Origin: Thermodesulfobacteriota bacterium
GTDB lineage: Bacteria; Desulfobacterota_D; UBA1144; Nemesobacterales; Mycalebacteriaceae
Reading direction: 5' to 3'
NCBI GenBank assembly: GCA_965226585.1
Contig: OZ245366.1
Span: 487,423-551,422 of the forward strand
DNA length: 64,000 bases
Positions 1 to 15,970 of the stretch are shown here, piece after piece. The notes below the pieces were generated by a model. It was not told where the DNA came from and did not search any database. It saw only the letters and a list, made by a program, of their open reading frames with translations. A program made the translations under genes and the position numbers. Numbering within the stretch: the first letter of the stretch is position 1; each line of letters begins with the position of its first letter.

Positions 1-103
1 GAAATGTCAGGCCATGTCGATTCCACCTGTCAAAAATATACTTTAGTGTTTCCCTTGCCCCGTCTCTTACTATTTGAGTGTCAAACCTATTTGGTGTGCT
101 CAT
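1..103 (-). CDS. Partial CDS (N-terminus only; runs off the window start), hypothetical protein. Its start codon overlaps the Fic stop (ATGA).
   Basis: The reverse complement of bp 1-103 reads ATG AGC ACA CCA AAT..., giving MSTPNRFDTQIVRDGARETLKYIFDRWNRHGLTF... with no stop before the window edge. The ATG at 103-101 overlaps the TGA of the upstream Fic gene at 102-100. It is not in the ORF track because it is truncated. Confidence 0.3.
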   Translation of the reverse strand, partial: MSTPNRFDTQIVRDGARETLKYIFDRWNRHGLTF

Positions 104-1536
104 GTGTCACCCTTACATTCCTTGAGAATATCAAGAAACAAATGTTTGCCTTCAGCAAACAACTTTTTAACTTCTTCTTCGGAGTAGGGTTGGCTGTAGT
201 CCTTTTTCAAACCATTCACACTCTTTGCATTCAGTCCCTCTTTTTTAATTCTTAAACCTGTTTTATAACCGAGTTCTTCCAAAAAAAATGCTAACTTGCA
301 GTTGCAGTCAAAAGATCTATTTGCTTGGCCCATATATCCATAATATTGGTAATCTATTACGAATAAATTTCTTGCATGCCGTGAGATATACTCAAAATTC
401 ATAGTGAAGTTTTCTTTGATAGTATTAATTAGATTGTTTAGATTCTCATCCGTCAATTTAGCACCTTGGGAAATTGTTTGTAAGCATTTGTTAGAGTTGT
501 TCTCACTATAATTTTCATCCATTCTTGTTATTTCCAATGAAGTTTGCTCAAACAGGTCGCTATACACACTAAATTCTTTGATGAACATTTTAGAAGTCTC
601 TGCAAAACATTTATCAAATATTTCTGTGCAATTTGTCGGTGTGATTGGCACTTTTAACCCTGTTTCTTTTTGCTGTCGGATGAATTGCTGAGTTTCTTTA
701 TCAATGTCTTCAATCTCGCTTATATCTTCACCTTTTGCCGCCTTAACCCCAATCTCCAGCCAATAAACAAGAATGTTCCCAAGATATGTTGCAAGAGTAT
801 CCATATCTTCGTCATCCGCTTTCTGCAAAGCCGCAAAGTAGTTTCTTTTCTCTTCGCTCTTAATTACCAAAGGCGGGTAACCCAGTTTCAATAAAACATA
901 GTTCACCCACAGACGCACTACACGGCCGTTGCCGTCATCAAACGGGTGTATAACGATAAAGCGGTGGTGTAGTTCCGCGATAAAAGAAGCGATTGGCAGA
1001 GTCGGTTTTTCAATCTCATTGTTAAACCAATCCATAAGTTCATTCATTTTGGGAGAAACTTCCTGAGGTTCCGCAAACTTGAAAATCTCTCCCGTCTCTG
1101 TCCTTACGTGATTAGGTTGTGTCTTATACTGTCCGGGGATTATCTCTTTCTGAGTTTTTTGTCCGTCAGTAGTTTCCGCTTCTTTCCAGAAAGATTCTTT
1201 GAGAATAATTTTGTTCAAGCCCCTGATGTCGGCTTCCGTGAGATTTCTCTGTTTGTCTTCTGCAAACTCTCTGACTTTATCTATTGCCACATCGTGCGCT
1301 TTCATTTCCATATAATCGCGTTCAGGGTGAATTCCTTCCTCTTTTCCCTCAAGTATTAAGGCAACAGTTTCGCCGTAGGTAAGCGTATTCCCTTCAATGT
1401 GATTTGAATTGTAGTTCCACTCCAGACGGACTTTCTTATCAAACCGTTCCTTATCCTCCGGTTTAAGCGGTTGAATCTCCCGCCATTCCTTAAAAAGCGT
1501 TTCTATGCGTTTGTTAGTTTCCTGTAAAGACATCAC
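100..1536 (-). CDS. Fic/DOC family protein (class II Fic, putative AMP-transferase) with a roughly 190-aa C-terminal extension of unknown function
   Basis: It carries the canonical Fic motif HPFDDGNGR. An N-terminal SNHIEGN element matches the (S/T)xxxE(G/N) inhibitory-helix motif of class II Fic proteins. The coding DNA for the C-terminal third (about 100-700) is markedly AT-rich compared with the rest of the gene. Confidence 0.85.
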   Translation of the reverse strand: MMSLQETNKRIETLFKEWREIQPLKPEDKERFDKKVRLEWNYNSNHIEGNTLTYGETVALILEGKEEGIHPERDYMEMKAHDVAIDKVREFAEDKQRNLTEADIRGLNKIILKESFWKEAETTDGQKTQKEIIPGQYKTQPNHVRTETGEIFKFAEPQEVSPKMNELMDWFNNEIEKPTLPIASFIAELHHRFIVIHPFDDGNGRVVRLWVNYVLLKLGYPPLVIKSEEKRNYFAALQKADDEDMDTLATYLGNILVYWLEIGVKAAKGEDISEIEDIDKETQQFIRQQKETGLKVPITPTNCTEIFDKCFAETSKMFIKEFSVYSDLFEQTSLEITRMDENYSENNSNKCLQTISQGAKLTDENLNNLINTIKENFTMNFEYISRHARNLFVIDYQYYGYMGQANRSFDCNCKLAFFLEELGYKTGLRIKKEGLNAKSVNGLKKDYSQPYSEEEVKKLFAEGKHLFLDILKECKGDT

Positions 1537-2156
1537 TTCACTCCGGCTTTTGGTCTGTAATCCCTTTCGTCAATGCATCGGTCATACATATCCCTATCAA
1601 TCTTAATCCAATCCGTATCGTTTATTCCCCTTTTGTTTCTGCTTGCCGGGCCCACCGGAAACGCGCTTGCGATTTTAATCCAACGACTTTCCTTCCGTGC
1701 TATGTATCTAACTTCCTCCGCCACTTCGGACAAATCTTGATCTTGACTGAAGATAACTACAACATCACAGAGATTTTCAATTGCCGCCCTTGTAACATCA
1801 AGAGCGATTCTTATGTCAATTCCCTTCTCTCGCCCCACAAGTATTGGTGTGGAGTCATCCCGACTTGCATTTGAGTACTGGAGTTTTCTGGAGAAGACTT
1901 CTATTTCCGGGACTCTTCCCATAGCCGCCAATTTATTTTTCCAAAAAGCATGCCAATATGGGTCAACTTTTTCATCGGGAGTGCCGGTACAAAAGGTAAT
2001 TCCTGTTAGTTGCCATTTCTTGAGTTCACAGACTTTCTCCGAAAGTTTTTTGACTTCGTAGTTCGGGTATTTGTGTCCGAAAGCTTCCTTTGCTGAATGG
2101 AACAGATTTTGACCGTCAATGAAGAAACGGGCTCTTTTGATTTCGGGTTCAATCAT
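1533..2156 (-). CDS. NYN-domain (LabA/DUF88-like) putative ribonuclease
   Basis: FIDGQNLFH near the N-terminus and a KGIDIRIALD...VVVIFSQDQDL core are typical of NYN/LabA PIN-like nucleases. I placed the start at MIEPEIK (ATG at 2156-2154) because it is preceded by GGAGGTTT. The ORF-track start at 2246 has no RBS. The stop overlaps the Fic start (ATGA at 1533-1536). Confidence 0.7.
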   Translation of the reverse strand: MIEPEIKRARFFIDGQNLFHSAKEAFGHKYPNYEVKKLSEKVCELKKWQLTGITFCTGTPDEKVDPYWHAFWKNKLAAMGRVPEIEVFSRKLQYSNASRDDSTPILVGREKGIDIRIALDVTRAAIENLCDVVVIFSQDQDLSEVAEEVRYIARKESRWIKIASAFPVGPASRNKRGINDTDWIKIDRDMYDRCIDERDYRPKAGVK

Positions 2157-2315
2157 TGTTAAACCTCCAAAAAGCCAAAAAATAACCCCACTCAGAGGCC
2201 CGAAGGCAGGTCTGAGGGGGGGCAAATAGTTCAATATAAGTATCACCTGCCCTGAACATTGTCAAGAACGATGCCAAAGTTGACAAATTCCCCGATACAG
2301 ACATTTCCTTTACAA

Positions 2316-4112
2316 TCACTTTCCAGCCCCCAATTCCTTAAAAATCTTCCCGATTTCCCTGTCGCTTTTCTTTGCCTCTTTCTCAAGCATTGCCAGCTCC
2401 GCCCATATATCCGGTATTGAACGAAGAACCTCTTTCTCCGTTGTGTCTATGTAACGAGACGGCGAAAGGTTGTAGTCATTCTCCGCCGCCTTTTTGACGG
2501 TTATGACAGTTGAAAAACGCTCTTCCTCTTTCCATTTGGAAAAGACGTTCTCAATCCGCTTTGAACCCTCATCCGTCAAATGGTTCTTCGGGCTGACCTT
2601 TTTGAACTCGTTGCTCGCGTTGATAAGAACGATTTTCCGCTTTCTCGCGGCACTTTTGTTTTTATTCATAATGATTATGACACCCGCCGCCGCCGCATTG
2701 TAGAAAAGGTTGTCGGGAAGAAGGATTACGCCCTCAATCAAATCTTTATCAACAAACCATTTGCGTATTTTCTTTTCCTTGTCCTCTCCCGATGCCCCGC
2801 TTCCGCGTGTTACGGCTCCGGTGTCTATCACTACCGCCGCTCTCCCCCTGCTACTCATAGATTTTGCCGTGTGCTGAAGCCATGCCCAGTCCGCCTTTCC
2901 CGTTGTTGAACCGCCCTGCGACTCAAATCTGTCAAATTGGTCGTCTTCGTAAGTCCGGACATTAAACATCTGATTCCACATCGGATTGGCGACAACAATG
3001 TCAAAAGTCTGAAGCCCCCCCGTTTTATTGCGAAACTTCGGGTTCGTCATTGAGTTGCCCCGCACAATCTCACAGTCCATGTCGTGTATGATGGCATTCA
3101 TTCGCGCCATCGCGTAGTTGTCCGGTCCAAGTTCCTGCCCGGACAGTTTTAAGGGGATTCCCTTTTTCACATCGGGATAACGCTCGCGAAACGCAAGTTC
3201 GCACTTGATAAGCAGACCCGCAGACCCGCAAGCATAGTCATAAACGGTTTCGCCCTGAGTCGGCTTCATAATCCGCGCCATAAGCCACCCGACTTCCGTG
3301 GGCGTGAAAAACTCGCCCGCAGTCTTTCCCGAACCTTCCGCAAACTTTCTCAAAAGATATTCGTAACAACGTCCAATAAAATCCGGCTCCACATCGTGAA
3401 GACCAAGCCGGTATCTTGGCTTTGAAAACTTTTCTATTACTTCCTTGAGCGACTCGTCGCTTACCTCCCTCTCTCCGCCGGTTGTTTTGTTGTAGTCAAC
3501 AAGATCTATGACACCGTTTAACAACGGATTTCTTCTGGCGACCGCGCGCATCGTTGTAGTTATCTGCTCTCCCAGAGTTTTCGGCTTCTTTCCTTTCCGC
3601 CAGTTGAAACTTTTTCTGCCGCTCAGAACTTCCCATCTGGTTTCCGGCGGCAGATAAAAGTGGATGTAACCCTCTCCCCCGCTGACCATCTCCTCCGCCT
3701 CTTCCATACTCCCGAGTTTTTCCGCAATGCGGTTCATTTCGTCTTCAAACACATCCGAGAGGCGTTTGAGGAAAACGAGCGGAAGGAGAAAGTTTTTGAA
3801 CTGCGGCGCGTCTTTTTCACCCCTGATTGAACAGGCGGCGTCCCACAGCATCGTTTCCATCATCTTTCTGCTCAAAACATCTTGCCCGGTTTTGAGCCTG
3901 CGAACAGGCGATTCCGGGTCAGACTGTTCCGCTTTCTCCGCCATTGTCATTATTCTCTTGTGATACTTTTTGTGCGGAGACCGGCGTCCGTTTTCCCAGC
4001 CGTTCAGAGTGGAAAACGAAACGCCCAGCTTCGCGGCAAGGTTCTCCTGAGACAGATTCATCTTTTCTCTGATGCCCGCTATAATCTCTGATATGTTTTC
4101 TTTTTCCGCCAT
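2316..4112 (-). CDS. hsdM: N6-adenine DNA methyltransferase of the type I R-M HsdM family with an N-terminal XRE-type helix-turn-helix
   Basis: An HsdM_N-like region (MLWDAACSIRG...FLLPLVFLKRLSD) is followed by a SAM-binding motif (YDYACGSAGLL), the catalytic VANPMW (NPPY-type) motif and an HsdM C-terminal signature (YNLSPSRYID). The first 50 aa or so (LSQENLAAKLGVSFSTLNGWENGRR) look like an HTH_XRE. Confidence 0.8.
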   Translation of the reverse strand: MAEKENISEIIAGIREKMNLSQENLAAKLGVSFSTLNGWENGRRSPHKKYHKRIMTMAEKAEQSDPESPVRRLKTGQDVLSRKMMETMLWDAACSIRGEKDAPQFKNFLLPLVFLKRLSDVFEDEMNRIAEKLGSMEEAEEMVSGGEGYIHFYLPPETRWEVLSGRKSFNWRKGKKPKTLGEQITTTMRAVARRNPLLNGVIDLVDYNKTTGGEREVSDESLKEVIEKFSKPRYRLGLHDVEPDFIGRCYEYLLRKFAEGSGKTAGEFFTPTEVGWLMARIMKPTQGETVYDYACGSAGLLIKCELAFRERYPDVKKGIPLKLSGQELGPDNYAMARMNAIIHDMDCEIVRGNSMTNPKFRNKTGGLQTFDIVVANPMWNQMFNVRTYEDDQFDRFESQGGSTTGKADWAWLQHTAKSMSSRGRAAVVIDTGAVTRGSGASGEDKEKKIRKWFVDKDLIEGVILLPDNLFYNAAAAGVIIIMNKNKSAARKRKIVLINASNEFKKVSPKNHLTDEGSKRIENVFSKWKEEERFSTVITVKKAAENDYNLSPSRYIDTTEKEVLRSIPDIWAELAMLEKEAKKSDREIGKIFKELGAGK

Positions 4113-4149
4113 TTTAATTTGCCCGCATACAAAATAAACGCTATAGCGT

Positions 4150-5637
4150 TTATGTCAAGTTAGACCTGTCTTCAGTTAAGTTTTTTACGAGAGATTCTCT
4201 GAAATCGTTGCTGTTCAGAACCTTTCCCCATTCAAAGCAGAACAGGCTTGTGGGCAAAAACATGACTAATCTGTTTCTTACGGATTTGTGCCCAAACTTG
4301 CTTTTTGTCAGGCACGTTATGCCCCCGTTTTCGTTTCCAATATCGTGCTTTTGTGCAAAATCAAGAAGCCCCTCAATTTCCGACAAGTTGTCATAGGGTT
4401 TATCCGACCATTTGATTTCAATCGCGGATTCAACTTTTGTTCCGGTTTCATCCGGCAATACCAAATCCACCTCCTTACTGTTCCAGCGCGCGTAGTAGAG
4501 AGCTTCCGGCTTTTTTATCAAGTGAAACAGATGGCTGAACACCGCCGTCTCCACGAGTCTCCCAAGAACCGTGCCATCGCTGTCCTGCTCTCCCACAGTT
4601 CCGAAAAGCGCCGCATACATTGAGGGGTTTGTCAGATAGATCTTGAAAGTGTGGTCTCTTTGAAATCTTTTTATGTTCCTGTCCACCCTGCGGACGCGCC
4701 TAATAAGGAAAGCCGCCTCAAGGTATTCCAGATACTTTGAGATTGTGCTTTTGGTAACACTTGAGCCTTGCGAGAGTTTGGACAGATTAATTTCAAGCCC
4801 CGTATTATGGGCAACAGTCATGAAAAGGCGGTTGAGTTCGGGGATGTCCGTTATCCCGTATAAACTCGGCAAGTCTCTGAGGAGCACCTTGTCTATGATG
4901 TCGCTTCTGATAAAACGCCCCGGATCTTTTTTAATTTCCTCGGAAAACACGGCTTCGGGGTATCCTCCAAAATTCAGGTATTCGATGAAGTGTTTGTTGA
5001 TTTCACCGATATTTTCCACTGCTTTGCCGGCATTCATAAACACTCCGCCGCTTTGGTCAAATATCTTTGACTCTTCATCCGCAAACTTCATGTACTCCTG
5101 AAAAGTCATAGGCGGAAGAATAAAGTCCGTGAACCTTCCCGCGCCGGACTCGGTGCTTTTCAGTTTTAGTGCCGCCGCTGAAGATCCGGTAGCGATAAAG
5201 CGGTGCTGAGGGTAGGAATCAACAAGTGATTTCAGATGTATTTCCCAGTTTTTGAGATATTGAATCTCATCAAAAAAGATATAGGCGGAACTGTCCTGCG
5301 GGACTTTCTGCAGTTCAAGAAATGTCAGAAGAACTTTTTCAAGGTGCAGCCCGGCGTAAACGGGGTTGTCCAGAGGGATGTAGAGAATGTTTGCCGGACT
5401 GGTGTTTTCCTCTATCAGTTTGGCAATTGACTGATGCGCCATTACAGTTTTGCCGACCCTGCGCGGTCCCATGAGGACAATGGCGCGATTTATTCCGGTT
5501 TTGCACACCAACTCATAGAACGGGTCGAAGTAGACCCTTTTGGGTTCATCCTTCCACCTCACATTCTCAGGCTGTGTCCACCACGGATTGTCAGCTTCAA
5601 GACGTTGGCGGATTTCTTTTTCCGATATCTCAAGCAT
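4150..5637 (-). CDS. AAA+ ATPase of the DUF4143 family (ATP-binding protein)
   Basis: It has a Walker A (GPRRVGKT) and Walker B (IFFDEIQ). The N-terminus (PWW...YFDPFYELV) and the C-terminal region resemble AAA_14 plus DUF4143 proteins. Confidence 0.7.
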   Translation of the reverse strand: MLEISEKEIRQRLEADNPWWTQPENVRWKDEPKRVYFDPFYELVCKTGINRAIVLMGPRRVGKTVMAHQSIAKLIEENTSPANILYIPLDNPVYAGLHLEKVLLTFLELQKVPQDSSAYIFFDEIQYLKNWEIHLKSLVDSYPQHRFIATGSSAAALKLKSTESGAGRFTDFILPPMTFQEYMKFADEESKIFDQSGGVFMNAGKAVENIGEINKHFIEYLNFGGYPEAVFSEEIKKDPGRFIRSDIIDKVLLRDLPSLYGITDIPELNRLFMTVAHNTGLEINLSKLSQGSSVTKSTISKYLEYLEAAFLIRRVRRVDRNIKRFQRDHTFKIYLTNPSMYAALFGTVGEQDSDGTVLGRLVETAVFSHLFHLIKKPEALYYARWNSKEVDLVLPDETGTKVESAIEIKWSDKPYDNLSEIEGLLDFAQKHDIGNENGGITCLTKSKFGHKSVRNRLVMFLPTSLFCFEWGKVLNSNDFRESLVKNLTEDRSNLT

Positions 5638-5672
5638 CGCAACGGGAGTATAGTGAAAATGCCTAAAATGTC

Positions 5673-5856
5673 AAATAAGAACAATCAATTAGTCTTATTT
5701 GCCTTTTTGCTGTTTCGGTCAATAAAATCAGTATGATGAACAATGCAAATAGTGTAATGCAAAATAAGAACAGTTGATTAGTCTTAATGCATAGATACGC
5801 AATAAAGGTTGTGATACCAGTAAGTTATGTAATGCAAATAGTGTAATGCAATGCAA
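5673..5856. repeat. AT-rich intergenic repeat cluster: two copies of a 25-bp unit and two copies of a 21-bp unit, with TAATGCAA reiterated at least five times
   Basis: aaataagaacaatcaattagtctta at 5673-5697 matches aaataagaacagttgattagtctta at 5762-5786 at 22 of 25 positions. aatgcaaatagtgtaatgcaa at 5742-5762 is identical to 5831-5851. More taatgcaa copies occur at 5848 and 5879. Confidence 0.6.
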
Positions 5857-5985
5857 GACGCATAGGTTAACAGTCCGGTAATGCAATCCGCACAAAACCG
5901 GCGCGATGCCGTCTATTTCCGTTTGTTACTTTTTGACCTCAACCTCCGTTTAATTTACACTTTCCGCCGTTTCAGGGGCGGAACT

Positions 5986-7896
5986 ATGAACGGAGAAAAA
6001 ATCTGCAACGTTATTGTGATAGGCGGCGGGCACGCGGGCTGTGAAGCCGCGCTTGCGGCGGCGCGCATGGGGCGCAAAACACTTCTGCTTACGGCAAATA
6101 TAGACACAATCGGCGTTATGTCATGCAACCCGTCCATCGGCGGGGTTGGCAAAGGGCATATCGTGAGAGAGATAGACGCCCTCGGCGGCGAGATGGCTAA
6201 AGCCGCAGACGCAAGCGCGATTCAATACAGAACACTCAACACACGCAAAGGCGCGGCGGTGCGCGCCACCCGCTCTCAGGCGGACAGACAGGTGTACAGA
6301 GCGCATATGCGCCGGGTTCTTGAAGAGTGCGAAAATCTTGACATAAAACAGAGAATGGTGGACGGATTTCTTGTTTCCGGGGATGAGGTGAAGGGCGTGA
6401 AAACAAGCCTCGGAGAAACCTTTTTCTCTGACTCCGTTGTCGTTACGCCGGGAACTTTTCCGAACGGGCTTATACACGTTGGAGACGAACGCTACTCTTC
6501 GGGACGCGCCGGGGAAAAAGCGGCGATGGAGATAACCGGCTCATTCAAAGACCTGGGGCTTGAAGTGGGCAGACTCAAAACCGGAACGCCGCCCCGCTTT
6601 GACGGCAGAACAATACGCTGGGACGCCCTTACAGAGCAGAAAGGCGATGAAAATCCAAGACCGTTTTCTTTCTCAAACACCCGGACAGGCATCAGCCAGA
6701 TGTCGTGCTACATCACGCACACAAACGGGAAAACGCACGAAGTTATCAGAAAAAACCTTTCCCGCTCGCCCCTCTATTCTGGCGTGATAAGCGGCGTGGG
6801 TCCGCGCTACTGCCCGTCCGTTGAAGATAAAATTGTGAAGTTTCCCGACAAAGACCGCCACCAGATATTTCTTGAGCCGGAGGGCAGAAACACCTACGAA
6901 GTCTATCCAAACGGCATATCAACCAGCCTTCCGCTTGACGTGCAGACGGAGATGTCCAGAACGATAGAAGGGCTTGAACAGGTTGAAATAATGCGCCCCG
7001 GATACGCGGTGGAATACGATTTTATAAACCCGACACAACTGAACTCGGCGCTTGAATGCAAACGCGCGCGAGGGCTTTTCTTTGCCGGGCAGGTGAACGG
7101 AACAACCGGATACGAGGAAGCCGCCGGGCAGGGGATTGTGGCGGGAATAAACGCCGCTCTGCACTCGCGCGGCGACAGCCCCTTTGTGCTTGACCGCTCA
7201 GACGCCTACATCGGAATCATGATAGACGACCTTGTTACAAAGGGCGTTGACGAGCCATACAGGATGTTCACTTCAAGGGCGGAATACCGCCTTGTTCTGC
7301 GCGAAGACAACGCAGACATCAGACTTATGGAAAAAGGACACCGCGCGGGGCTCATAAGCGATGAACGCTACGAGCGGCTTGTCATCAAAAAACACGCGCT
7401 CAAGAGTGAAGTGGAAAGACTTGAACAGACCCGCTGTGTTCCCGGAAGCCCGGCGGATTTGCAACTGAAACAGATGGGCTCATCGGCGCTGAAAAAACCG
7501 CAGTCGCTCGCAGAGATTCTCAGAAGACCCGCAATCACTTACTCTGAACTCGCCCTTTTTGACACCGTGTCCGCCGAACTCGCCGGTTCAGACACCGCCG
7601 CGCAGGCGGAGATGCAGGTTAAATACGCGGGCTATGTGAAGATGCAGACGGAACAACTCGGCAGGTTCAAACGGTTTGAACGCATGTCCATACCGGAAAC
7701 CTTTGACTACGCCAAAGTGTCCGGGCTTTCCAAAGAGATAGTTCAGAAACTTTCAAGCGCGAGGCCGCGCTCTCTCGGGCAGGCGGGGCGAATATCAGGC
7801 GTTACGCCCGCCGCCGTTTCGGTTCTTATGCTGCACCTGAGGAAAAATCCCGCAAGGGAAGGTCAGTCAACCATCTCGACATCTTCTTCCTCGTAG
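5986..7896 (+). CDS. mnmG: tRNA uridine-5-carboxymethylaminomethyl modification enzyme MnmG (GidA)
   Basis: The FAD-binding N-terminus NVIVIGGGHAGCEAALAAARMG and the MnmG-specific motifs are present. I placed the start at M36 of the track ORF (ATG at 5986). The upstream 35 codons are not conserved. Confidence 0.93.
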   Translation: MNGEKICNVIVIGGGHAGCEAALAAARMGRKTLLLTANIDTIGVMSCNPSIGGVGKGHIVREIDALGGEMAKAADASAIQYRTLNTRKGAAVRATRSQADRQVYRAHMRRVLEECENLDIKQRMVDGFLVSGDEVKGVKTSLGETFFSDSVVVTPGTFPNGLIHVGDERYSSGRAGEKAAMEITGSFKDLGLEVGRLKTGTPPRFDGRTIRWDALTEQKGDENPRPFSFSNTRTGISQMSCYITHTNGKTHEVIRKNLSRSPLYSGVISGVGPRYCPSVEDKIVKFPDKDRHQIFLEPEGRNTYEVYPNGISTSLPLDVQTEMSRTIEGLEQVEIMRPGYAVEYDFINPTQLNSALECKRARGLFFAGQVNGTTGYEEAAGQGIVAGINAALHSRGDSPFVLDRSDAYIGIMIDDLVTKGVDEPYRMFTSRAEYRLVLREDNADIRLMEKGHRAGLISDERYERLVIKKHALKSEVERLEQTRCVPGSPADLQLKQMGSSALKKPQSLAEILRRPAITYSELALFDTVSAELAGSDTAAQAEMQVKYAGYVKMQTEQLGRFKRFERMSIPETFDYAKVSGLSKEIVQKLSSARPRSLGQAGRISGVTPAAVSVLMLHLRKNPAREGQSTISTSSSS

Positions 7897-7991
7897 AATT
7901 CTCCCAGTTCGTTCAATTCCACGTCGCCGACATCCATTTCTTCAGGGTCGTCGTTTCCCGCGTAAACCTGCTCATCAGGGTCCTCAATCAT
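7863..7991 (-). CDS. Possible very acidic 42-aa micro-ORF overlapping the 3' end of mnmG on the opposite strand (speculative)
   Basis: The minus-strand ORF ATG...TGA encodes MIEDPDEQVYAGNDDPEEMDVGDVELNELGEFYEEEDVEMVD. It is below the ORF-track size cutoff. No RBS was evaluated. Confidence 0.12.
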   Translation of the reverse strand: MIEDPDEQVYAGNDDPEEMDVGDVELNELGEFYEEEDVEMVD

Positions 7992-8120
7992 ATTGACGAG
8001 GTCTCTGATTCTTTCGTCTCTTGAAGTAGCCACCTCAACACCCCCTGTGTTGTGATTTAACGGACAGAGCCCGTTTCCGCCCCCATAATATTGACGGACG
8101 GGGAAAAATCAACCCTTTTT

Positions 8121-10190
8121 TTAGTCCGCAATTGAAGCGGCAAAATCGTCCGCGCCGGAAGGAAGTCCGCACGTCCCGTCTTCGCACACATAGACAAGCG
8201 TTTTCCCGTTTCCGCCCGCAGAGCATCCGGCGGCAAAAGGGGCTATGTTGCCGGTCTCAGAGCAGTCCGGTTTTTTGAGCAGAACTGTTGCCCCCGGCTC
8301 GTAGTTTTTCGCGAGCGCGTCCGTAACTTTTTCCGCCCCGTCCGTGCCTTCGGCGATAACAACCTCAAATGTTTTTCCCGCGGCAAACTCAAGCGCGCAG
8401 AGAAGCATTCCGTGTGAAGACGGCAGTTTTTCAACCGACAGCGAAAGAGAGCGGGCAATTTTAGCGGCGTCCTCATCGTACCGGTGGTTTCCCGTCAGGC
8501 GGGATATTTTCATCAGGTTGAGAGCCGCAACCGAGTTTCCGCACGGAAGCGCGCCGTCATGAAACTCCTTTTTCCTCACTATCAGACTTTCCGCCCCCGA
8601 CGGGGTGAAGAAAAAACCGCCTTTTTCCTCATCAGAAAAAAGTTCAATCATCTTGTCGTTCAGCCTCATCGCGGTTTTAAGGCGCGAGATGTCAAACCCC
8701 GCTTCGTAAAGCTCAAGCAGTCCCCAGACCATAAACGCATAGTCGTCCAAGTTTCCCCTGATGGCGGCGTCTCCGTCTCTGAATCTGTGCAGAAGTTCAT
8801 TGCCGTCAAACATATTTGCGAGAATGAAATCCGCCGCAGTTTCCGCCGCTTCAACATATTCTTTCCGCCCGAAAGCTCGTCCCGCTTTTGAGAACGCCGC
8901 TATCATCAAGCCGTTCCAGTCGGTCAGAATTTTGTCGTCTTTGTGCGGACGCGGGCGTTTTTCTCTGCGTTCAAACAGCTTTTTCACCGCAGATTCAGTA
9001 AGCCGCTCCGCTTCGGTTTTGTCTGTGCCCGCAGTTTCCGCCGCAAAGGAAAGCGGTTTTGTTCTGTGCGGGATGTTGGTTCCGGGCATTTTTCCGGTCG
9101 CCTCGTCAACAAAGTTCCCGCCGCTTTTTATGGTAAAAACCTCCGCCGCAATGCGGGCTTCATCCGCTCCCGCCGTCTCTCTGAATTCCTCTTCGCTCCA
9201 TAGGTAGAACTTTCCCTCCTCGCCCTCGCTGTCCGCGTCTTCTGCGGAGAAGAACGCGCCGCCTGAAGCGGTCATGTCTCTCATGACGTATTCAAGCGTT
9301 TTTTCCGCGCCGTTTTTATAGGCGGGGTTTGAGGTGGCAAGCCACGCCTCGGTCAGGGCGGCGCAGATAAGCGCCTGATCGTGGAGCATTTTTTCAAAGT
9401 GCGGCACAAGCCACCGGCGGTCGGTTGAATACCTGTGAAATCCGCCCCCGATGTGGTCGTTTATTCCGCCGTCAAGCATGGAGCCGAGCGTTTTTTCAGC
9501 AACTTCAAGGGATTTGGCATCTCCGGTTCTTTTCCAGTGGCGAAGCAGGAATATCAGGTTTTGCGGAGAGGGGAATTTAGGCGCGTCTCCGAAGCCCCCG
9601 AAAACGGGGTCAAAAGCCGCCGCCAGAGTTTCCGCGCCGTTTTTCAGCAGATCCTCATTGCCCATGCGCCCCTCAGACTGCATCACCGCTTGAGAGTCTC
9701 TGATGGCAATCTCAATGTCTCCGGCGGATTTTTCTATGTCTGCGCGCCGGGAACTCCACACCTCTTTTATCTGCGGTATCAGTTCAACCATTCCGGCTCT
9801 GCCGTATCTGTTGTGTTTCGGTATGTAGGTTGCCGCGAAAAACGGTTTTTTGCCGGGCGTCATAACAACATTCAGGGGCCATCCGCAGTTTCCTCTTGAA
9901 ACTATCTGGCACACGCTCATCAGAACCCCGTCAATGTCCGGACGCTCTTCGCGGTCAACCTTGATGGAGATGAAAACATCGTTCATCAACTCCGCCACTT
10001 CCGGGTCTTCAAAAGACTCCTTTTCCATCACGTGGCACCAGTGGCAGGTTGAGTATCCGACTGAAACGAGAACGGGCTTGTCTTCGCGCGCGGCGGTTTC
10101 AAACGCCTCTCCGCACCAGGGGTACCAGTTCACCGGGTTGCCCGCATGCTGGAGAAGATAAGGGCTTTTTTCTTTTGAAAGTCTGTTCAT
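8121..10190 (-). CDS. Thioredoxin-domain protein of the DUF255/YyaL family (N-acylglucosamine-2-epimerase-like C-terminal domain)
   Basis: The N-terminus ([17 protein letters not shown]...[18 protein letters not shown]) is the DUF255 thioredoxin-like signature. The long alpha/alpha-toroid-like C-terminus is typical of YyaL. Confidence 0.8.
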
Positions 10191-11519: not shown

Positions 11520-12434
11520 TCAACTGAGACAGTCTTTTATCTCGCGTGCGAGGTTTTCCACCACTTCAAAATAGAGGTCTTCACCCGGAGTGATGCCTGA
11601 GCCCAGAGGGTCTATAACTCCGATTTTCGCGTCTGTTCCCTCAACCACCGTTTTCATGATTTTTCTGCTGAACTGCGGCTCGCCGAAAACGCAGACGGCT
11701 CCGGACTTGCGTATTTTTTTGCGTATGCGGGTTATCTCCGCCGCAGACGGAGGGGAATCCGGGTTGAAGGTTATGGAGCCCACCGGTTTCAGCCCGTACA
11801 GTTTTTCAAAATAGATGTAGGCATCGTGAAAAACCACGTACGGAATGCCTTTCACTCCGGCGAGTTCTTTGCGTATTTTCGCGTCCAGTTTTTTCAGCCG
11901 CGCGATAAGAGCCCGCGCGTTTTTTTTGTATCTGCTTCTCTCGCCCGGATTTGCCTTAGACATTTCCCGCGTAATTATCTTCACGATTTTCTCCGCCATT
12001 GGAGGCGACAGCCAGATGTGCAAGTTGTGATTTCCGTGGTCGTGCCCGTCAGACTCCCATTCTCCGCTTTTTCTGACTTTCATAAGCGACAATCCGGAGT
12101 TATCCGCCACCGCCACCGTGCGAACGCCTGAGGGAACGGAGCGCAGGGCGTTGTTGAGAAACCCCTCAAGACCGCCGCTAATATAGAAAACCGCTTTCGC
12201 GTTTCTTATGCTTCTCACGTGCGACGGGCTGAGACTGAATCCGTGAGGCGAAATGCCTGACTTCACTATCAAATCCGTTTTTTCCGCGCCCTTTACAACT
12301 CCCGACACAAGAGCGTGAAGCGGCGCGATGCTTGCCGCTACCCTGCCCGAATCCTTCGCATTTACACCGCCTGAAAACACGGCAAACATCACGCCCGCAA
12401 GAACAAAAACACTTGCAAATCTTTTCATGTGCAA
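11520..12434 (-). CDS. znuA: Zinc ABC transporter substrate-binding protein ZnuA (TroA/cluster A-I SBP)
   Basis: It has a signal peptide and a cluster-9 SBP fold with a His-rich loop (DGHDHGNHNLHIW). It is divergent from zur-znuCB. Confidence 0.85.
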   Translation of the reverse strand: MHMKRFASVFVLAGVMFAVFSGGVNAKDSGRVAASIAPLHALVSGVVKGAEKTDLIVKSGISPHGFSLSPSHVRSIRNAKAVFYISGGLEGFLNNALRSVPSGVRTVAVADNSGLSLMKVRKSGEWESDGHDHGNHNLHIWLSPPMAEKIVKIITREMSKANPGERSRYKKNARALIARLKKLDAKIRKELAGVKGIPYVVFHDAYIYFEKLYGLKPVGSITFNPDSPPSAAEITRIRKKIRKSGAVCVFGEPQFSRKIMKTVVEGTDAKIGVIDPLGSGITPGEDLYFEVVENLAREIKDCLS

Positions 12435-12444
12435 CCCACCTCTT

Positions 12445-12477
12445 TTGACACAATATGCGTTATGTTATAACATAACG
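12445..12477. promoter_or_regulatory. Divergent znuA / zur-znuCB promoter region with a perfect 20-bp Zur-box-like palindrome
   Basis: TTGACA at 12445-12450 is followed by CGTTATGTTATAACATAACG (12458-12477; 10+10 perfect inverted repeat with a TGTTATAACA core). This resembles Fur/Zur-family operators and lies between znuA and zur. Confidence 0.6.
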
Positions 12478-12484
12478 CTTGATT

Positions 12485-12979
12485 ATGCAAAATTCAGAGC
12501 GAAAAACTGGAAATTCCGCAGTTTTCTGCGGCGACCATGATGTTTGCGTTGATGATGTTACCGCTTTTGCCGCCCGTGTTTGTTCGGAAAGGGGGGCGCG
12601 GCTCACGCCTATCAGAAAGCGCGTTCTTGAGATAGTCGCGCGCGCTCACAAGCCCGTCAAGGCGTATGACATCCTCGCCGACCTTTCAAGTTTCGCCAAG
12701 CCGCCCACGGTCTACCGCGCGCTTGATTTTCTGATAGAAAACGGTCTTGTCCACAAACTTTCCAGCATATCGTCTTACTCCGCCTGTTTTCACCCCGAAA
12801 GCGGGCACGCGGAGTGCTTTTTCCTTATCTGTTCGGAATGCGGAGGCAGTAGAGAGTTCTGCGGCTCAGACCTTTCGGGAGCAATAGAGGGAGCGGTTTC
12901 CCGTGAGGATTTCCGCAAGAAAAACGCGATTGTTGAAGTGCTCGGAACGTGCGCCGTGTGCGCGGAGGACGGGCGGTGA
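12485..12979 (+). CDS. zur: Fur-family zinc uptake regulator Zur
   Basis: It has a Fur-family winged helix (RKRVLEIVARAHKPVKAYDIL) and a C-terminal CxxC pair (CSECG...CAVC). It sits in the znu operon. The start is uncertain; I used the first ATG (12485), whereas the track uses TTG at 12479. Confidence 0.8.
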   Translation: MQNSERKTGNSAVFCGDHDVCVDDVTAFAARVCSERGARLTPIRKRVLEIVARAHKPVKAYDILADLSSFAKPPTVYRALDFLIENGLVHKLSSISSYSACFHPESGHAECFFLICSECGGSREFCGSDLSGAIEGAVSREDFRKKNAIVEVLGTCAVCAEDGR

Positions 12980-13728
12980 GGGAAGCCCTTATAAAGACTG
13001 AAAATGTGAACGTGTCGAGAGGCGGCGTTGAGATTTTGCGCGATATTTCGCTTGAGATAGGCGCGGGCGATTTTGTTTCAATCGTGGGTCCCAACGGAGC
13101 CGGAAAGACCACACTTCTGAAAATTCTCACGGGCGTTCTCAGCCCCGATTCCGGTTCGCGCTTCCGCAAGCCGGGGCTCAAAACGGGTTATATGCCGCAA
13201 ATCGTTGACAATATGAGTTTCATGCCCGTTTCGGCGGCGCGTTTTATACGTCTGCGTCACGGAAACGCCGGGGAAGAGGAGTTTAAATCTGTCTGCGGGG
13301 AAACGGGGGTTGCCGGTTTTGTGAACAGGGAGATGGGAAGACTTTCGGGCGGCGAGATTCAGCGCGTTCTGCTTGCAAGGGCTCTTATGGACAGCCCGGA
13401 CATACTCATTATGGATGAGCCCGCGCAAAACCTTGACGTTTCCGGGCAACTGGAGTTCTACAAACTGCTTGAAAGAATTCACCGCGAGCGCGGGGTTGCC
13501 GTTGTGATGGTATCGCACGACCTACACATGGTGATGTCTTCCACAAAGAATGTCATCTGCCTTTACGGGCATATATGTTGCGAGGGAGAGCCTCAGAGTG
13601 TGGCGAAACACCCGGAGTTCTCGGTGATGTTCGGCGAGGGTATGGCGCAACTGATGTCTGTCTATTCCCACAGTCACGAGCATACGCACGGCGGCAACAC
13701 GGGCGGAGAGACGAGCAAAAATGGGTGA
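12976..13728 (+). CDS. znuC: Zinc ABC transporter ATP-binding protein ZnuC
   Basis: It has Walker A GPNGAGKTTLLK, the ABC signature LSGGEIQRV and Walker B ILIMDEP. I propose a GTG start at 12976 overlapping the zur stop (GTGA). Confidence 0.85.
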   Translation: MREALIKTENVNVSRGGVEILRDISLEIGAGDFVSIVGPNGAGKTTLLKILTGVLSPDSGSRFRKPGLKTGYMPQIVDNMSFMPVSAARFIRLRHGNAGEEEFKSVCGETGVAGFVNREMGRLSGGEIQRVLLARALMDSPDILIMDEPAQNLDVSGQLEFYKLLERIHRERGVAVVMVSHDLHMVMSSTKNVICLYGHICCEGEPQSVAKHPEFSVMFGEGMAQLMSVYSHSHEHTHGGNTGGETSKNG

Positions 13729-14536
13729 AGATTTTGTCATACGCGCTCTTATAGCCGGAGCGGGGGTCGCAATCGCCGCGGGCGCGCTGGGATGCTTTGT
13801 TGTGTGGCGGCGCATGGCTTATTTTGGAGACTCGCTGTCTCACACCGCGCTTGCGGGCATTCCGTTCGGATTGCTTGCCGGAATAGGAATTGACTACGGG
13901 GTTTTTGCGGTTGTGGTGGTGTTTTCCCTTCTGCTCACTTGGGCGTATAAGCGCGGCAAACTCGGCACAGACACGGTTCTCGGCATAATAGCCCACGGCG
14001 CTCTTGCCATCGGTGTGGTCGCGGTTTCCCTTGTCAATTTCACTGCCATCAACCTTCACTCGGCTCTTTTCGGCGACATACTCACGGTCGTAAACGCAGA
14101 CATAGTGCGGATATACGTTTGCTGTGCCGTTGTTCTCGCCCTGATTTTGCTCAACTGGGATTCCCTTGTGCTTATAACGATAAGCGAAGACATGGCAAAG
14201 GCGGAGGGCGTCAGGGTGTTGGTGATGAACTTTATGCTTGTGTTTCTGATGGCGGTTATGGTGTCTGCTTCCTTCCGAATTGTGGGGGCTTTGCTGATAA
14301 CTTCAATGCTTATAATTCCCGCCGCCGCCGCGCGGATGCTCGCGCGTTCTCCCGAAATGATGGCGATTCTCGCGTGCGCGGTCGGGGTTTCATCCGTTGT
14401 GGTTGGCATATACGGTTCGCTTGTCTACAACACCCCTTCGGGGCCCACAATAATCACGGCTTCCGTTCTGTTTTTCGTTCTTTTTCTCGCTTGCGGGTTT
14501 ATTTACGAAAAGTGGTTCGCGGGCGTAAAAAACTAG
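13721..14536 (+). CDS. znuB: Zinc ABC transporter permease ZnuB
   Basis: It is a multi-TM protein of the ABC-3 family (GALGCFVVWRRMAYFGDSLSHTALAGI). Its start overlaps the znuC stop. Confidence 0.85.
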   Translation: MGEDFVIRALIAGAGVAIAAGALGCFVVWRRMAYFGDSLSHTALAGIPFGLLAGIGIDYGVFAVVVVFSLLLTWAYKRGKLGTDTVLGIIAHGALAIGVVAVSLVNFTAINLHSALFGDILTVVNADIVRIYVCCAVVLALILLNWDSLVLITISEDMAKAEGVRVLVMNFMLVFLMAVMVSASFRIVGALLITSMLIIPAAAARMLARSPEMMAILACAVGVSSVVVGIYGSLVYNTPSGPTIITASVLFFVLFLACGFIYEKWFAGVKN

Positions 14537-14548
14537 AGGTGTAATGTT

Positions 14549-15970
14549 ATGAAAACGTTTTTTGCTTTTATTCTAATGGCTTCCGCGATATTCGCGGCTG
14601 TTCCGCCCGCGTCCGGTGAAATAACCATAGACGGGCATATTGATATGAAACTCCACATGGACAAAGTCATAGACTCAGCCGAAGCAACCGGCGAGGTGCT
14701 TGAGGGCTATACCGATTCCCATATCTACACGATATTGCACCTGCCGTGGGGTTTTTCCCTTGAAACGGAAGTGCTTCTTGAGGGTGAACCGTGCGGACAC
14801 GACCACGGGCACGGCGAAGAAGAGGAGGAAGAAGAACATGCTCATGAAGCGGTGTGCAGAACAGCGGTAGAGGAGCATGAAGAAGAAGCAGCTGAGCCAC
14901 ATTCACACGCCGACCCTCCGGCAGCAGCACAAGCACAAGAAGAAGAAGAGGAAGTGGAATTAAGGAAACTTTCTTTCTTCGGTGACCATGTTTTTACGCT
15001 TCAAACCTTTATGCTGAAATACACACGCGCTTTCGGTCCCGTAAAATGGTCTCTCTACGGCGGCAAGTTTGTTCCCGTTGTCGGAATAGACGCGGAATCC
15101 CTGCCGGGTGTGTATTCATACCGCGCTCTCCACGAATACGATTTAGACCCGAAAATCGGTTTAGGCACAAAGTTTGTCGTGAACGCGGAGGATTTTGGAA
15201 CGCACCAGTTGAATACATCCCTCTTTACGGCGGACACAACCGCTTTCAGCGATAACGGCTCGGGCGACCGCCTCAAAAGGGCGGACGGTGGACCGTCCAA
15301 CAACGGCGACCTTACATCCGTGGTTTTTTCGCTTGGCGGAAAAAATTTCTACACCCTGAGAGACGGCTTTTTTGCCAACTTTCTGGAAGGTTTTTCATAC
15401 CGCATCGGCTATGCGAACCAGAAGAAGCAGAGCATGGCATATGAAGGTGAATATGATGAACACATCGGACCGCCGACCACAGGAGACGAAACGAGATACA
15501 CATTTTCAATGGGGCAGAAACGGAACTTTACGGAAAATCTCTCCCTCACACTCAAGACCGAATACATCAACATAAACAACTACGGGGGCGAAACGGGACG
15601 ATTGCGCAATGCGTGGACGGTGGCAACCGCTTTTGACTGGAAGCGGTGGACGCTTGCGGGTTCTTATTCCTCAACGGACAACAGGTCATCCACTTTCACC
15701 AGAAGGAGGATAGCGATAGAGACGCAGGTAAGGGATAGGACACCGAGAGAAAACGTGCTTCCGCCGGAAGAAGATACGGGGAGCCTTGGCGCGACTATTT
15801 ACAGCTTTTCCCTCTCACGCAAACTTGGCGGCGGCGGAGCGAAACTTGGTGTCGGCTACCAGAGTGTGAAAGAAGAGGGCGAAACAACCGGCAGAATTGG
15901 AATGCTCCTCAGTTACAGCGGCTCGTTTTTCTCAGGCTCCGCAGAGAGCCACGAAGGGCACGACCACTAA
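14549..15970 (+). CDS. Secreted/outer-membrane protein with a His- and Glu-rich low-complexity metal-binding region, co-transcribed with znuCB
   Basis: It has a signal peptide (MKTFFAFILMASAIFAAVPPASG). A tract GHDHGHGEEEEEEEHAHE...EEHEEEAAEPHSHAD...QEEEEEVE and a C-terminal SHEGHDH are present. The rest has the alternating pattern of beta-barrel strands. It begins 13 nt after znuB, with an RBS. Confidence 0.5.
   Translation: MKTFFAFILMASAIFAAVPPASGEITIDGHIDMKLHMDKVIDSAEATGEVLEGYTDSHIYTILHLPWGFSLETEVLLEGEPCGHDHGHGEEEEEEEHAHEAVCRTAVEEHEEEAAEPHSHADPPAAAQAQEEEEEVELRKLSFFGDHVFTLQTFMLKYTRAFGPVKWSLYGGKFVPVVGIDAESLPGVYSYRALHEYDLDPKIGLGTKFVVNAEDFGTHQLNTSLFTADTTAFSDNGSGDRLKRADGGPSNNGDLTSVVFSLGGKNFYTLRDGFFANFLEGFSYRIGYANQKKQSMAYEGEYDEHIGPPTTGDETRYTFSMGQKRNFTENLSLTLKTEYININNYGGETGRLRNAWTVATAFDWKRWTLAGSYSSTDNRSSTFTRRRIAIETQVRDRTPRENVLPPEEDTGSLGATIYSFSLSRKLGGGGAKLGVGYQSVKEEGETTGRIGMLLSYSGSFFSGSAESHEGHDH

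Follow-up and report, generated by a model that had tools for sequence, protein, structure and literature searches.

The stretch of DNA analysed here, called the window throughout, comprises 64,000 nucleotides (nt) of contig OZ245366.1 from a Thermodesulfobacteriota bacterium (positions 487,423 to 551,422), and the subject of this report is the gene string at its beginning, which includes the methyltransferase subunit of a type I restriction-modification (R-M) system. Five consecutive minus-strand genes occupy positions 1-5640, as an earlier note on the sequence had described, and all of the open reading frames (ORFs) are present as placed, with strong family matches for the four complete ones. 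In the direction of transcription they encode an ATPase of 495 amino acids (aa) with AAA_14 and DUF4143 domains (4150..5637; Pfam, PADLOC), an HsdM protein of 598 aa with an XRE-type helix-turn-helix (HTH) domain (2316..4112; Pfam, PADLOC), a predicted ribonuclease (RNase) of 207 aa with a NYN domain of the LabA/COG1432 type (1533..2156; Pfam), and a Fic protein of 477 aa, made up of a class II core (aa 1-290, 664..1533) and a C-terminal domain (aa 291-477, 100..663). The fifth ORF (MSTPNRFDTQIVRDGARETLKYIFDRWNRHGLTF, 34 codons, 1..103) is cut off by the window edge, and its ATG overlaps the Fic stop codon. The opposite flank is formed by mnmG/gidA on the plus strand (5881-7896). The G+C content is 0.35-0.51 across the gene string and about 0.55 in the mnmG/gidA flank, a difference which suggests that the string is acquired DNA. 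Neither HsdS nor HsdR is encoded within 1-5640; the ORF list and the profile searches agree with the earlier note in this respect. We nevertheless consider it probable that these genes form the promoter-proximal half of a type I R-M operon, acquired horizontally and located beside mnmG, with a variable slot for accessory genes between its hsd genes. The evidence for this reading comes from the domain assignments, the synteny with the related loci L002, L003 and L090, the exchanges between strains, the lower G+C content and a set of palindromes, as described below.

The methyltransferase combines the HsdM_N domain and the gamma-class N6-adenine methyltransferase domain that define the HsdM subunit of type I R-M systems (Pfam HTH_3 E 1e-10, HsdM_N E 5e-21 and N6_Mtase E 7e-87; PADLOC MTase_I E 1.5e-150), and its closest solved relatives are the type I M subunits 7VRU/7VS4, 3LKD and EcoR124 HsdM. 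Motif I reads DYACGSAG, while motif IV (residue ~376) is NPMW and not the canonical NPP(F/Y/W). This variant is kept in all seven HTH-HsdMs examined (those of the window, L001-L004, L006 and L090), whereas NPPF is found in motif IV of the HsdMs without an HTH from other Fic or NYN loci. The conservation of NPMW across diverged HTH-HsdMs argues for selection.

A putative hsdM promoter on the minus strand (TTGACA-16-TATTTT, 4131..4158), which scores 10/12 matches in a consensus scan, contains in its spacer a perfect palindrome of 20 nt, ATAAACGCTATAGCGTTTAT (4134-4153), which is also listed as a stem. Palindromes of differing sequence are found at the equivalent place upstream of hsdM in six loci (L001, L002, L003, L004, L006 and L090), and those of L002, L090, L003, L004 and L006 have cores of the GCTATAGC type or the GTTATAAC type. 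The same place combined with a different sequence is the pattern expected of an operator that co-evolves with a fused HTH. It is plausible that the palindrome ATAAACGCTATAGCGTTTAT is the operator of the HTH domain of HsdM, and the autoregulation which the earlier note had proposed for this protein is likewise plausible, in view of the position of the palindrome inside the promoter and of its six counterparts. The arrangement can be compared to that of controller (C) proteins, which likewise combine an XRE-type HTH with a palindromic operator that overlaps a methyltransferase promoter; HTH_3 and a palindrome inside the regulated promoter are both present here at the sequence level. It differs from them by the fusion of the HTH to HsdM, a type I subunit, and its operator is a putative one. 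Methyltransferases in which an N-terminal HTH represses the protein's own promoter exist, e.g. M.SsoII.

The gene order in relatives bears directly on the missing subunits. Fic-bearing relatives share the chromosomal neighbours of the window, namely genes for a NUDIX protein, a DsbH-like thioredoxin and MnmG. At this DsbH-mnmG site the order in L002 is AAA, HTH-HsdM, PhoD-like, Fic, HsdS, GMT-wHTH, DUF5131, SIR2_2, HsdR, YgjP, M48 and UvrA, and in L003 it is AAA, HTH-HsdM (split), NYN, Fic, HsdS fragments, HsdR, YgjP, M48 and UvrA. The closest Fic/NYN pair is that of L090, where the Fic protein is 59% identical to that of the window, and here AAA, HTH-HsdM, NYN and Fic are followed by HsdS, the hsdS gene starting 9 nt past Fic. 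Two further relatives have the genes elsewhere in the genome, L004 with HTH-HsdM, Fic, a KAP NTPase, HsdS and Abi_2, followed further along by RhuM and HsdR, and L006 with HTH-HsdM, Fic, SIR2_2, HerA and HsdS. HsdS is consequently seen after Fic in L002, L003 (fragmented), L004, L006 and L090, and HsdR downstream in L002, L003 and L004. By synteny with L002, L003 and L090 it is very probable that hsdS and hsdR lie just past the window start, where the earlier note had suspected them, and its view that NYN and Fic occupy the position between hsdM and hsdS is borne out by the same placement of both genes in L003 and L090. The spaces between the hsd genes are variable slots for differing passenger genes. 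In a collection of 84 Fic loci, consisting of 80 from a genome scan with the Fic alignment together with L001-L004, the Fic gene lies inside type I R-M gene sets in 12.

Some details of these relatives may be added. The genes for GMT-wHTH, DUF5131 and SIR2_2 in the inter-hsd slots of L002 span 12738-15628, and the SIR2_2 and HerA pair in the slot of L006 spans 11582-14265. In L003, a frameshift located exactly at motif IV (ANPMW / MFPDMWNQ) splits hsdM (7419-9252), and hsdS (11541-12781) is fragmented, whereas NYN, Fic and hsdR are intact; this locus is an R-M system in decay which has retained its cargo.

The comparison with L001, a Logan contig from the same species as the window, pinpoints the fast-evolving parts of the locus, since two strains with almost identical flanks (99.2% identity over window 12500-5665) differ in the ATPase gene, in the C-terminal domain of Fic and in the gene that follows. 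Within the island the identity is 93.2%, and at this level hsdM, NYN and the N-terminal part of Fic are retained. The ATPase gene is missing from L001, window 4165-5664 being exchanged there for 48 bp (L001 7322-7369), and no obvious flanking repeats were seen at the junctions of this indel in the two strains. The encoded protein matches AAA_14 (E 3e-33) and DUF4143 (E 9e-30) in Pfam and the candidate family PDC-S01 in PADLOC (E 2.6e-59), and the gene is preceded on the minus strand by a putative promoter of its own (TTGACA-16-TATACT, 5647..5674; 11/12 matches in the consensus scan). It also lies 5' of the HTH-hsdM gene in L002, L003 and L090, while L004 has it on the opposite strand. The ATPase gene is a separable module, as the indel between the two strains shows. 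In Fic, the similarity to L001 at the DNA level stops at the boundary between the domains (window 716, ~aa 272), and the two proteins are ~80% identical up to ~aa 290 and weakly alike afterwards (window 100-716 versus L001 10815-11377), so that the C-terminal domain is hypervariable and swapped between strains. Many Fic homologues retain the N-terminal 57-72% of the protein at 59-71% identity and diverge beyond it, which marks the C-terminal domain as the modular, fast-evolving part.

The gene after Fic in L001 is different from the cut-off ORF of the window. Among 5.8 billion proteins, none had a word in common with the 34-aa product of the latter (X-padded query); Pfam gave no match to it, and the 84 related loci contained no ORF like it. 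From the lack of any counterpart among proteins and loci it follows that the gene was probably never called, perhaps because of a contig end or because it is very small, and it is probably a further cargo gene or a small partner gene. The window starts 100 nt past the Fic stop codon and the L001 contig (11536) ends ~140 nt past it, which suggests that a contig end or a break in the assembly falls where the sequence after Fic is hypervariable or repeated.

Several observations weigh against an R-M operon at this locus. The placement of hsdS and hsdR for this genome rests on relatives, as window 1-5640 holds neither, and the split hsdM and fragmented hsdS of L003 demonstrate that such loci can decay. 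The variant motif IV is accompanied by a score of 190 bits against the NCBIfam hsdM equivalog, which is below its cut-off of 243. Fic stands alone in 71 of the 84 Fic loci, and the activities of NYN, Fic and the ATPase are predicted only. HEC-09, the one NYN-type embedded candidate that has been tested and one to which the NYN protein of the window is weakly similar (E 6e-10), gave no defence (bioRxiv 10.1101/2024.01.29.577857). In addition, the NYN gene was found beside chaperone genes in both of the long-contig places examined, with dnaJ, HSP20 and lon in L085 and with groES/groEL, dnaJ and grpE in L088 (homologues of 55-60% identity), and its other neighbours are heterogeneous, the upstream ones often being housekeeping genes. 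A role for NYN outside defence is thus possible.

The first group of these observations could be taken to mean that we are dealing with a methyltransferase island which is solitary or in decay, in which hsdS and hsdR have been lost or inactivated and HTH-HsdM, NYN, Fic and the ATPase are left over from a defence island without being related to one another. The absence of hsdS and hsdR from view, the state of L003, the non-canonical motif IV and the gene after Fic, which is not HsdS-like and has no homologue, would all be in line with this. However, all four complete genes of the window are intact and have their conserved motifs, an intact hsdS follows Fic directly in L002 and L090, the conservation of NPMW speaks for selection, and cargo between Fic and hsdS is found in other loci too. 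On balance we regard the remnant explanation as distinctly unlikely and prefer to read the locus as part of a type I R-M operon.

The Fic protein belongs to Pfam PF02661 (E 4e-17), and in PADLOC it matches PDC-S04 (E 1e-32) better than SoFic (E 4.5e-21). The active-site motif HPFDDGNGR (aa 196-204) and R207 are invariant in 32 homologues, and so is the inhibitory-helix motif S43-x-x-x-E47-G48-N49, which lies N-terminal of the core; this is the arrangement of a class II AMP-transferase. The protein was modelled with a predicted local distance difference test score (pLDDT) of 89, and its first ~280 residues are best matched by BT_2513 (3CUC; 43% identity, template modelling (TM) score 0.90), followed by FICD/HYPE, so that the fold, too, agrees with that of class II proteins. 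The C-terminal domain (aa ~291-477) was modelled as an alpha/beta domain with good scores (pLDDT 88, predicted TM score (pTM) 0.85), and a Foldseek comparison with the PDB found no match to it (best E 0.011, TM <0.3); phmmer returned one match among 1.84 billion representatives. With SoFic, BT_2513 and FICD the protein shares the N-terminal inhibitory helix S-x-x-x-E-G/N, the motif HPFx[D/E]GNGR and a regulatory C-terminal domain after the Fic core. It is different from SoFic in that its C-terminal domain has another, unmatched fold and in that the nearest solved structure is BT_2513, and orthology with SoFic was rejected on the basis of an NCBIfam NF046030 score of 22 bits against a cut-off of 550, 15% identity to 3EQX and the lack of a Fic_N domain. 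Class II Fic of the SoFic type acts as an anti-phage toxin, and EcSofic has a downstream antitoxin of 47 aa, AS1 (PMC12249575). As the Fic protein of the window carries its own inhibitory helix, an antitoxin of the FicA type is not needed.

For the NYN protein, the start codon is the ATG at 2156, in agreement with the product of 207 aa on record in the protein collection; a GTG at 2246 was considered and rejected, since the recorded product begins at the ATG. The match to Pfam PF01936 (37.9 bits against a gathering cut-off of 24.2, E 3e-9) is accompanied by an intact set of acidic residues, D14, D114, D120, D139 and D141 being invariant in 27 homologues; the earlier note had named the loss of such residues as a reason to abandon its proposal. 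Among 3950 homologues, the best 120 have 55-70% identity and are named from several phyla.

The earlier note had presented NYN and Fic as a unit, and this view could not be upheld. It would correspond to a dedicated two-gene system, either of toxin and antitoxin or of sensor and effector, which is co-translated and works only as a pair. Such a system would be in keeping with the stop-start overlap of the two genes in the window, L001, L003 and L090. The overlap had been described as ATGA for NYN/Fic as well as for Fic and the next gene; at the latter junction it is a true ATGA (100-103), but between NYN and Fic the sequence is AAG-TGA-TG, and the stop codon TGA and the start codon ATG share one base (TGATG). 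It would be four bases (GTGA) were GTG the Fic start. A second co-occurrence of Fic and NYN between hsdM and hsdS, in the unrelated sediment metagenome locus L144 (3248-13266), could also be counted in favour of the pair. The order there is HsdM, Fic_N+Fic (SoFic-type), NYN with leader, HsdS and HsdR, and the other Fic type and the opposite gene order rather point to shared use of a slot than to a fixed pair. Only a narrow clade (the window, L001, L003 and L090) and L144 have the pair, and each of the two genes mostly occurs without the other. Fic is present in R-M operons without NYN in L002, where a PhoD-like gene replaces NYN, in L004 and L006, and in five further loci (L011, L012, L020, L028 and L044). 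Conversely, NYN lacks Fic in 5 of 6 R-M-adjacent NYN loci from the Joint Genome Institute (JGI) and in L171, which belongs to the same NYN sub-clade. No coupled ORF was seen in 41 of the 63 NYN loci with downstream room, and most of those in the other 22 are short and probably spurious; a survey of neighbours likewise gave no consistent partner gene for NYN. Together with the inhibitory helix of Fic, which removes the need for an antitoxin of the FicA type, these data make an obligate two-gene system very improbable, and we prefer to see NYN and Fic as separate occupants of the slot in an R-M operon.

The gap of 159 nt between hsdM and NYN holds a promoter-like site and a hairpin with a U-tract, so that the gene string is not one simple operon. 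All of these features are on the minus strand. The inferred promoter (2237..2265) has a -35 element TTGACA (2260-2265) and, ~17 nt downstream, a -10-like TACTTA; a weaker promoter-like call at 2286-2258 was dropped in favour of this conserved TTGACA. It is followed by a leader RNA element (2176..2229), composed of a hairpin (2186-2220) and a U-tract (2177-2185), and downstream of the U-tract by the ribosome-binding site (RBS) GGAGG (2164-2168). In the minimum free energy (MFE) fold the lower stem of the hairpin comprises 10 bp and a single bulged U; above it come an internal loop, a GCC/GGC top of 3 bp and a UUCG loop. In a 78-sequence alignment of NYN upstream regions CTTGACA is kept, with the C of TTGACA at least 90% conserved, and the consensus reads CTTGACA, ~17 nt, TAnnnT, ~10 nt, CCCCGCTCGA-CAY-GCC-GNAA-GGC-C-TCGGGCGGGG-TTATTTTTT. 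Most loci have a GNAA loop and the clade of the window has UUCG, which suggests that the hairpin depends more on its stability than on the identity of its loop.

The pairing is supported by covariation. RNAalifold predicted 12 pairs in the leader alignment, 9 of them with compensatory changes, and a covariation test was run on a specified 13-pair structure against 500 column shuffles and slid controls. Pairing was found in 98.2% of cells versus 91.8% in the shuffles, none of which (0/500) reached the observed value, 9 pairs had double changes where 3.0 were expected, and the slid controls paired at 29-55%. The element is conserved in four R-M loci, and in a fold-based screen it was present in 76 of 85 NYN loci, 12-46 nt 5' of the start codon. 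A covariance model (R1) scored 50.3 bits at window 2176-2229 and gave 83 matches in 83 NYN sources, each on the same strand as NYN; a copy just 5' of NYN is present in nearly all of these sources. Over 1.45 Mb (the window and the Fic loci) it found the pre-NYN sites of the window, L001 and L003 and one marginal match only, L003 being outside the R1 training set. A search of Rfam 15 (4227 covariance models, E <=1) gave no match at the element, neither in window 1-6200 nor in a set of 20 NYN loci, so that assignment to a known RNA family was rejected. Two leader sites depart from a single copy next to the gene: L156 has two adjacent hairpin copies (6788-6839 and 6935-6987), and L115 has an additional, weaker copy apart from NYN (6538-6587).

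The position of the leader is informative about its function. Upstream neighbours of NYN are divergently oriented in 10 of 47 cases, hence the hairpin is not the terminator of the preceding gene. A promoter followed by a hairpin that resembles an intrinsic terminator suggests attenuation, by which a potentially toxic RNase would be kept low, and the same layout suggests, as a second option, that the RNase may regulate itself by acting on its own leader. Autoregulation via hairpins in the 5' untranslated region (UTR) is known for RNase III and RNase E, and Regnase-1 is a eukaryotic NYN/PIN-like RNase that acts on a stem-loop in its own mRNA. An RNA partner like that of type III toxin-antitoxin (TA) systems is a third and less likely option. 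As in type III TA systems of the ToxIN kind, a promoter, a structured RNA ending in a terminator and an RNase gene are inherited together, with the -35 element, hairpin, U-tract, RBS and NYN gene conserved in the 78 aligned loci. However, tandem antitoxin RNA repeats are lacking 5' of NYN, where 2157-2315 contains no direct repeats and a single hairpin only, and the absence of a repeat array weakens this option; the variability of the loop also points to stability of the hairpin and not to a loop-specific contact.

With promoter, 5' hairpin/terminator, RBS and gene, NYN thus appears to form a self-contained module, which mostly occurs outside R-M loci, and it has to be asked whether it belongs to the defence cargo at all. 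NYN might be a housekeeping or stress RNase that is autoregulated by its leader and is located here by chance, only Fic and the ATPase being defence-type cargo. The chaperone neighbours in L085 and L088, the heterogeneous and often housekeeping upstream neighbours, the negative result for HEC-09, and the 5' UTR hairpins through which RNases III and E regulate themselves are all consistent with such a role. So is the rarity of the leader pattern in viruses, with 3 occurrences in 2.9 million viral contigs (IMG/VR), which in addition makes a phage origin of the module unlikely. Against this, independent lineages repeatedly have NYN beside R-M genes. Five further unrelated loci (L091, L092, L136, L144 and L170) have it next to type I HsdM and/or HsdS, and in L091 and L136 it lies between hsdM and hsdS; it is followed by N6_N4 methylases in L101 and L142; and in L171 it stands beside an N6_Mtase fragment and RhuM genes. 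Its other neighbours include Cas1, HipA, an AbiEii-type ATPase and PIN, and the high conservation across homologues named from several phyla, together with the patchy context, suggests horizontal spread. We therefore find a housekeeping RNase that has come to this place by chance unlikely.

A more far-reaching proposal, which we can offer only tentatively, is that NYN and its 5' hairpin/U-tract form an uncatalogued, self-contained RNA-protein module, either autoregulated or type-III-TA-like, which spreads horizontally and has repeatedly been captured beside R-M genes. In the window it would gate a co-translated class II Fic with a phage-sensing C-terminal domain, and so provide a conditional layer of defence, a 'restriction guard'.

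With the R-M operon as the preferred reading, the locus might work as follows. HsdM would methylate and restrict DNA together with HsdS and HsdR encoded beyond the window, and its N-terminal HTH would bind the palindrome in its own promoter and limit expression in the fashion of a controller protein. The hairpin and U-tract would hold the expression of NYN low or conditional, most likely through attenuation and/or action of the RNase on its own leader. Fic, translationally coupled to NYN, would be kept inactive in the ground state by its inhibitory helix, and its fast-evolving C-terminal domain is likely to be a sensor or a surface for target selection. NYN and Fic would then be independent back-up effectors of the PrrC kind, which stop translation or growth once restriction fails, and not an obligate pair.

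The resemblance to PrrC is one of placement and proposed logic. PrrC, whose gene lies within a type I locus, is triggered upon inhibition of restriction (PMC12707154), and it is almost exclusively embedded in type I R-M systems (bioRxiv 10.1101/2024.01.29.577857). EcoprrI-PrrC and RloC, like the cargo proposed here, have an RNA-targeting effector gene in the space from hsdM to hsdS/hsdR and a proposed function as back-up when restriction is defeated. Homology was rejected, as no match to PrrC or RloC was obtained in Pfam, NCBIfam or PADLOC and NYN and Fic match PF01936 and PF02661 only. In contrast to PrrC and RloC, NYN and Fic are without ABC-ATPase or anticodon-nuclease domains and their association with the Hsd proteins is one of gene placement, and NYN has its own promoter and leader and is found mostly outside R-M loci. 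Other passengers are known as well: type I R-M subunits occur coupled to PIN-like nucleases (PMC5499597), and a type I R-M operon of Vibrio harbours TgvAB (PMC11411939).

Passenger defence genes in type I R-M operons are thus already known, and the window is one more example. The novelty that the earlier note saw in the embedded cargo is weak, because genes embedded in type I R-M systems have been catalogued and Fic and the ATPase match PDC-S04 and PDC-S01, two families of phage-defence candidates. The genes from which the PDC series was compiled had been located inside BREX, DISARM or type I R-M systems (bioRxiv 10.1101/2024.01.29.577857), and the 'guilt-by-embedding' catalogue (Payne et al. 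2024) yielded both this series, including PDC-S01 and PDC-S04, and the NYN-type HEC-09. These families, which are matched by the Fic protein, the ATPase and, weakly, the NYN protein of the window, are candidates of unassigned function, and HEC-09 differs from the NYN protein by an N-terminal HTH-like domain, which the latter lacks. The searched parts of the same preprint make no mention of the conserved leader RNA or of the swapping of Fic C-terminal domains. A literature search, itself noisy, returned no dedicated description of Fic inside hsd operons, and we found no description of an HTH-HsdM clade with NPMW and co-varying operators, of the swapping of the Fic C-terminal domain or of the promoter-hairpin module of NYN. 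The last of these concerns a predicted RNase family of ~210 aa with no assigned function, in which ~80 loci share promoter, hairpin and U-tract in a form absent from Rfam. Its leader is an experimental handle on a large uncharacterised RNase family and allows asking whether RNases embedded in R-M systems are RNA-regulated in cis.

Finally, the intergenic region between mnmG and the ATPase gene (5665-5860) is rich in repeats, which have no resemblance to the DnaA box. The region contains a tandem duplication of ~89 nt, with copies at 5667-5697/5756-5786 and 5729-5769/5818-5858, which carries several short repeats of the TAATGCAA type and is conserved in L001, and an inverted repeat of 21 nt at 5665-5708 overlaps the promoter of the ATPase gene.

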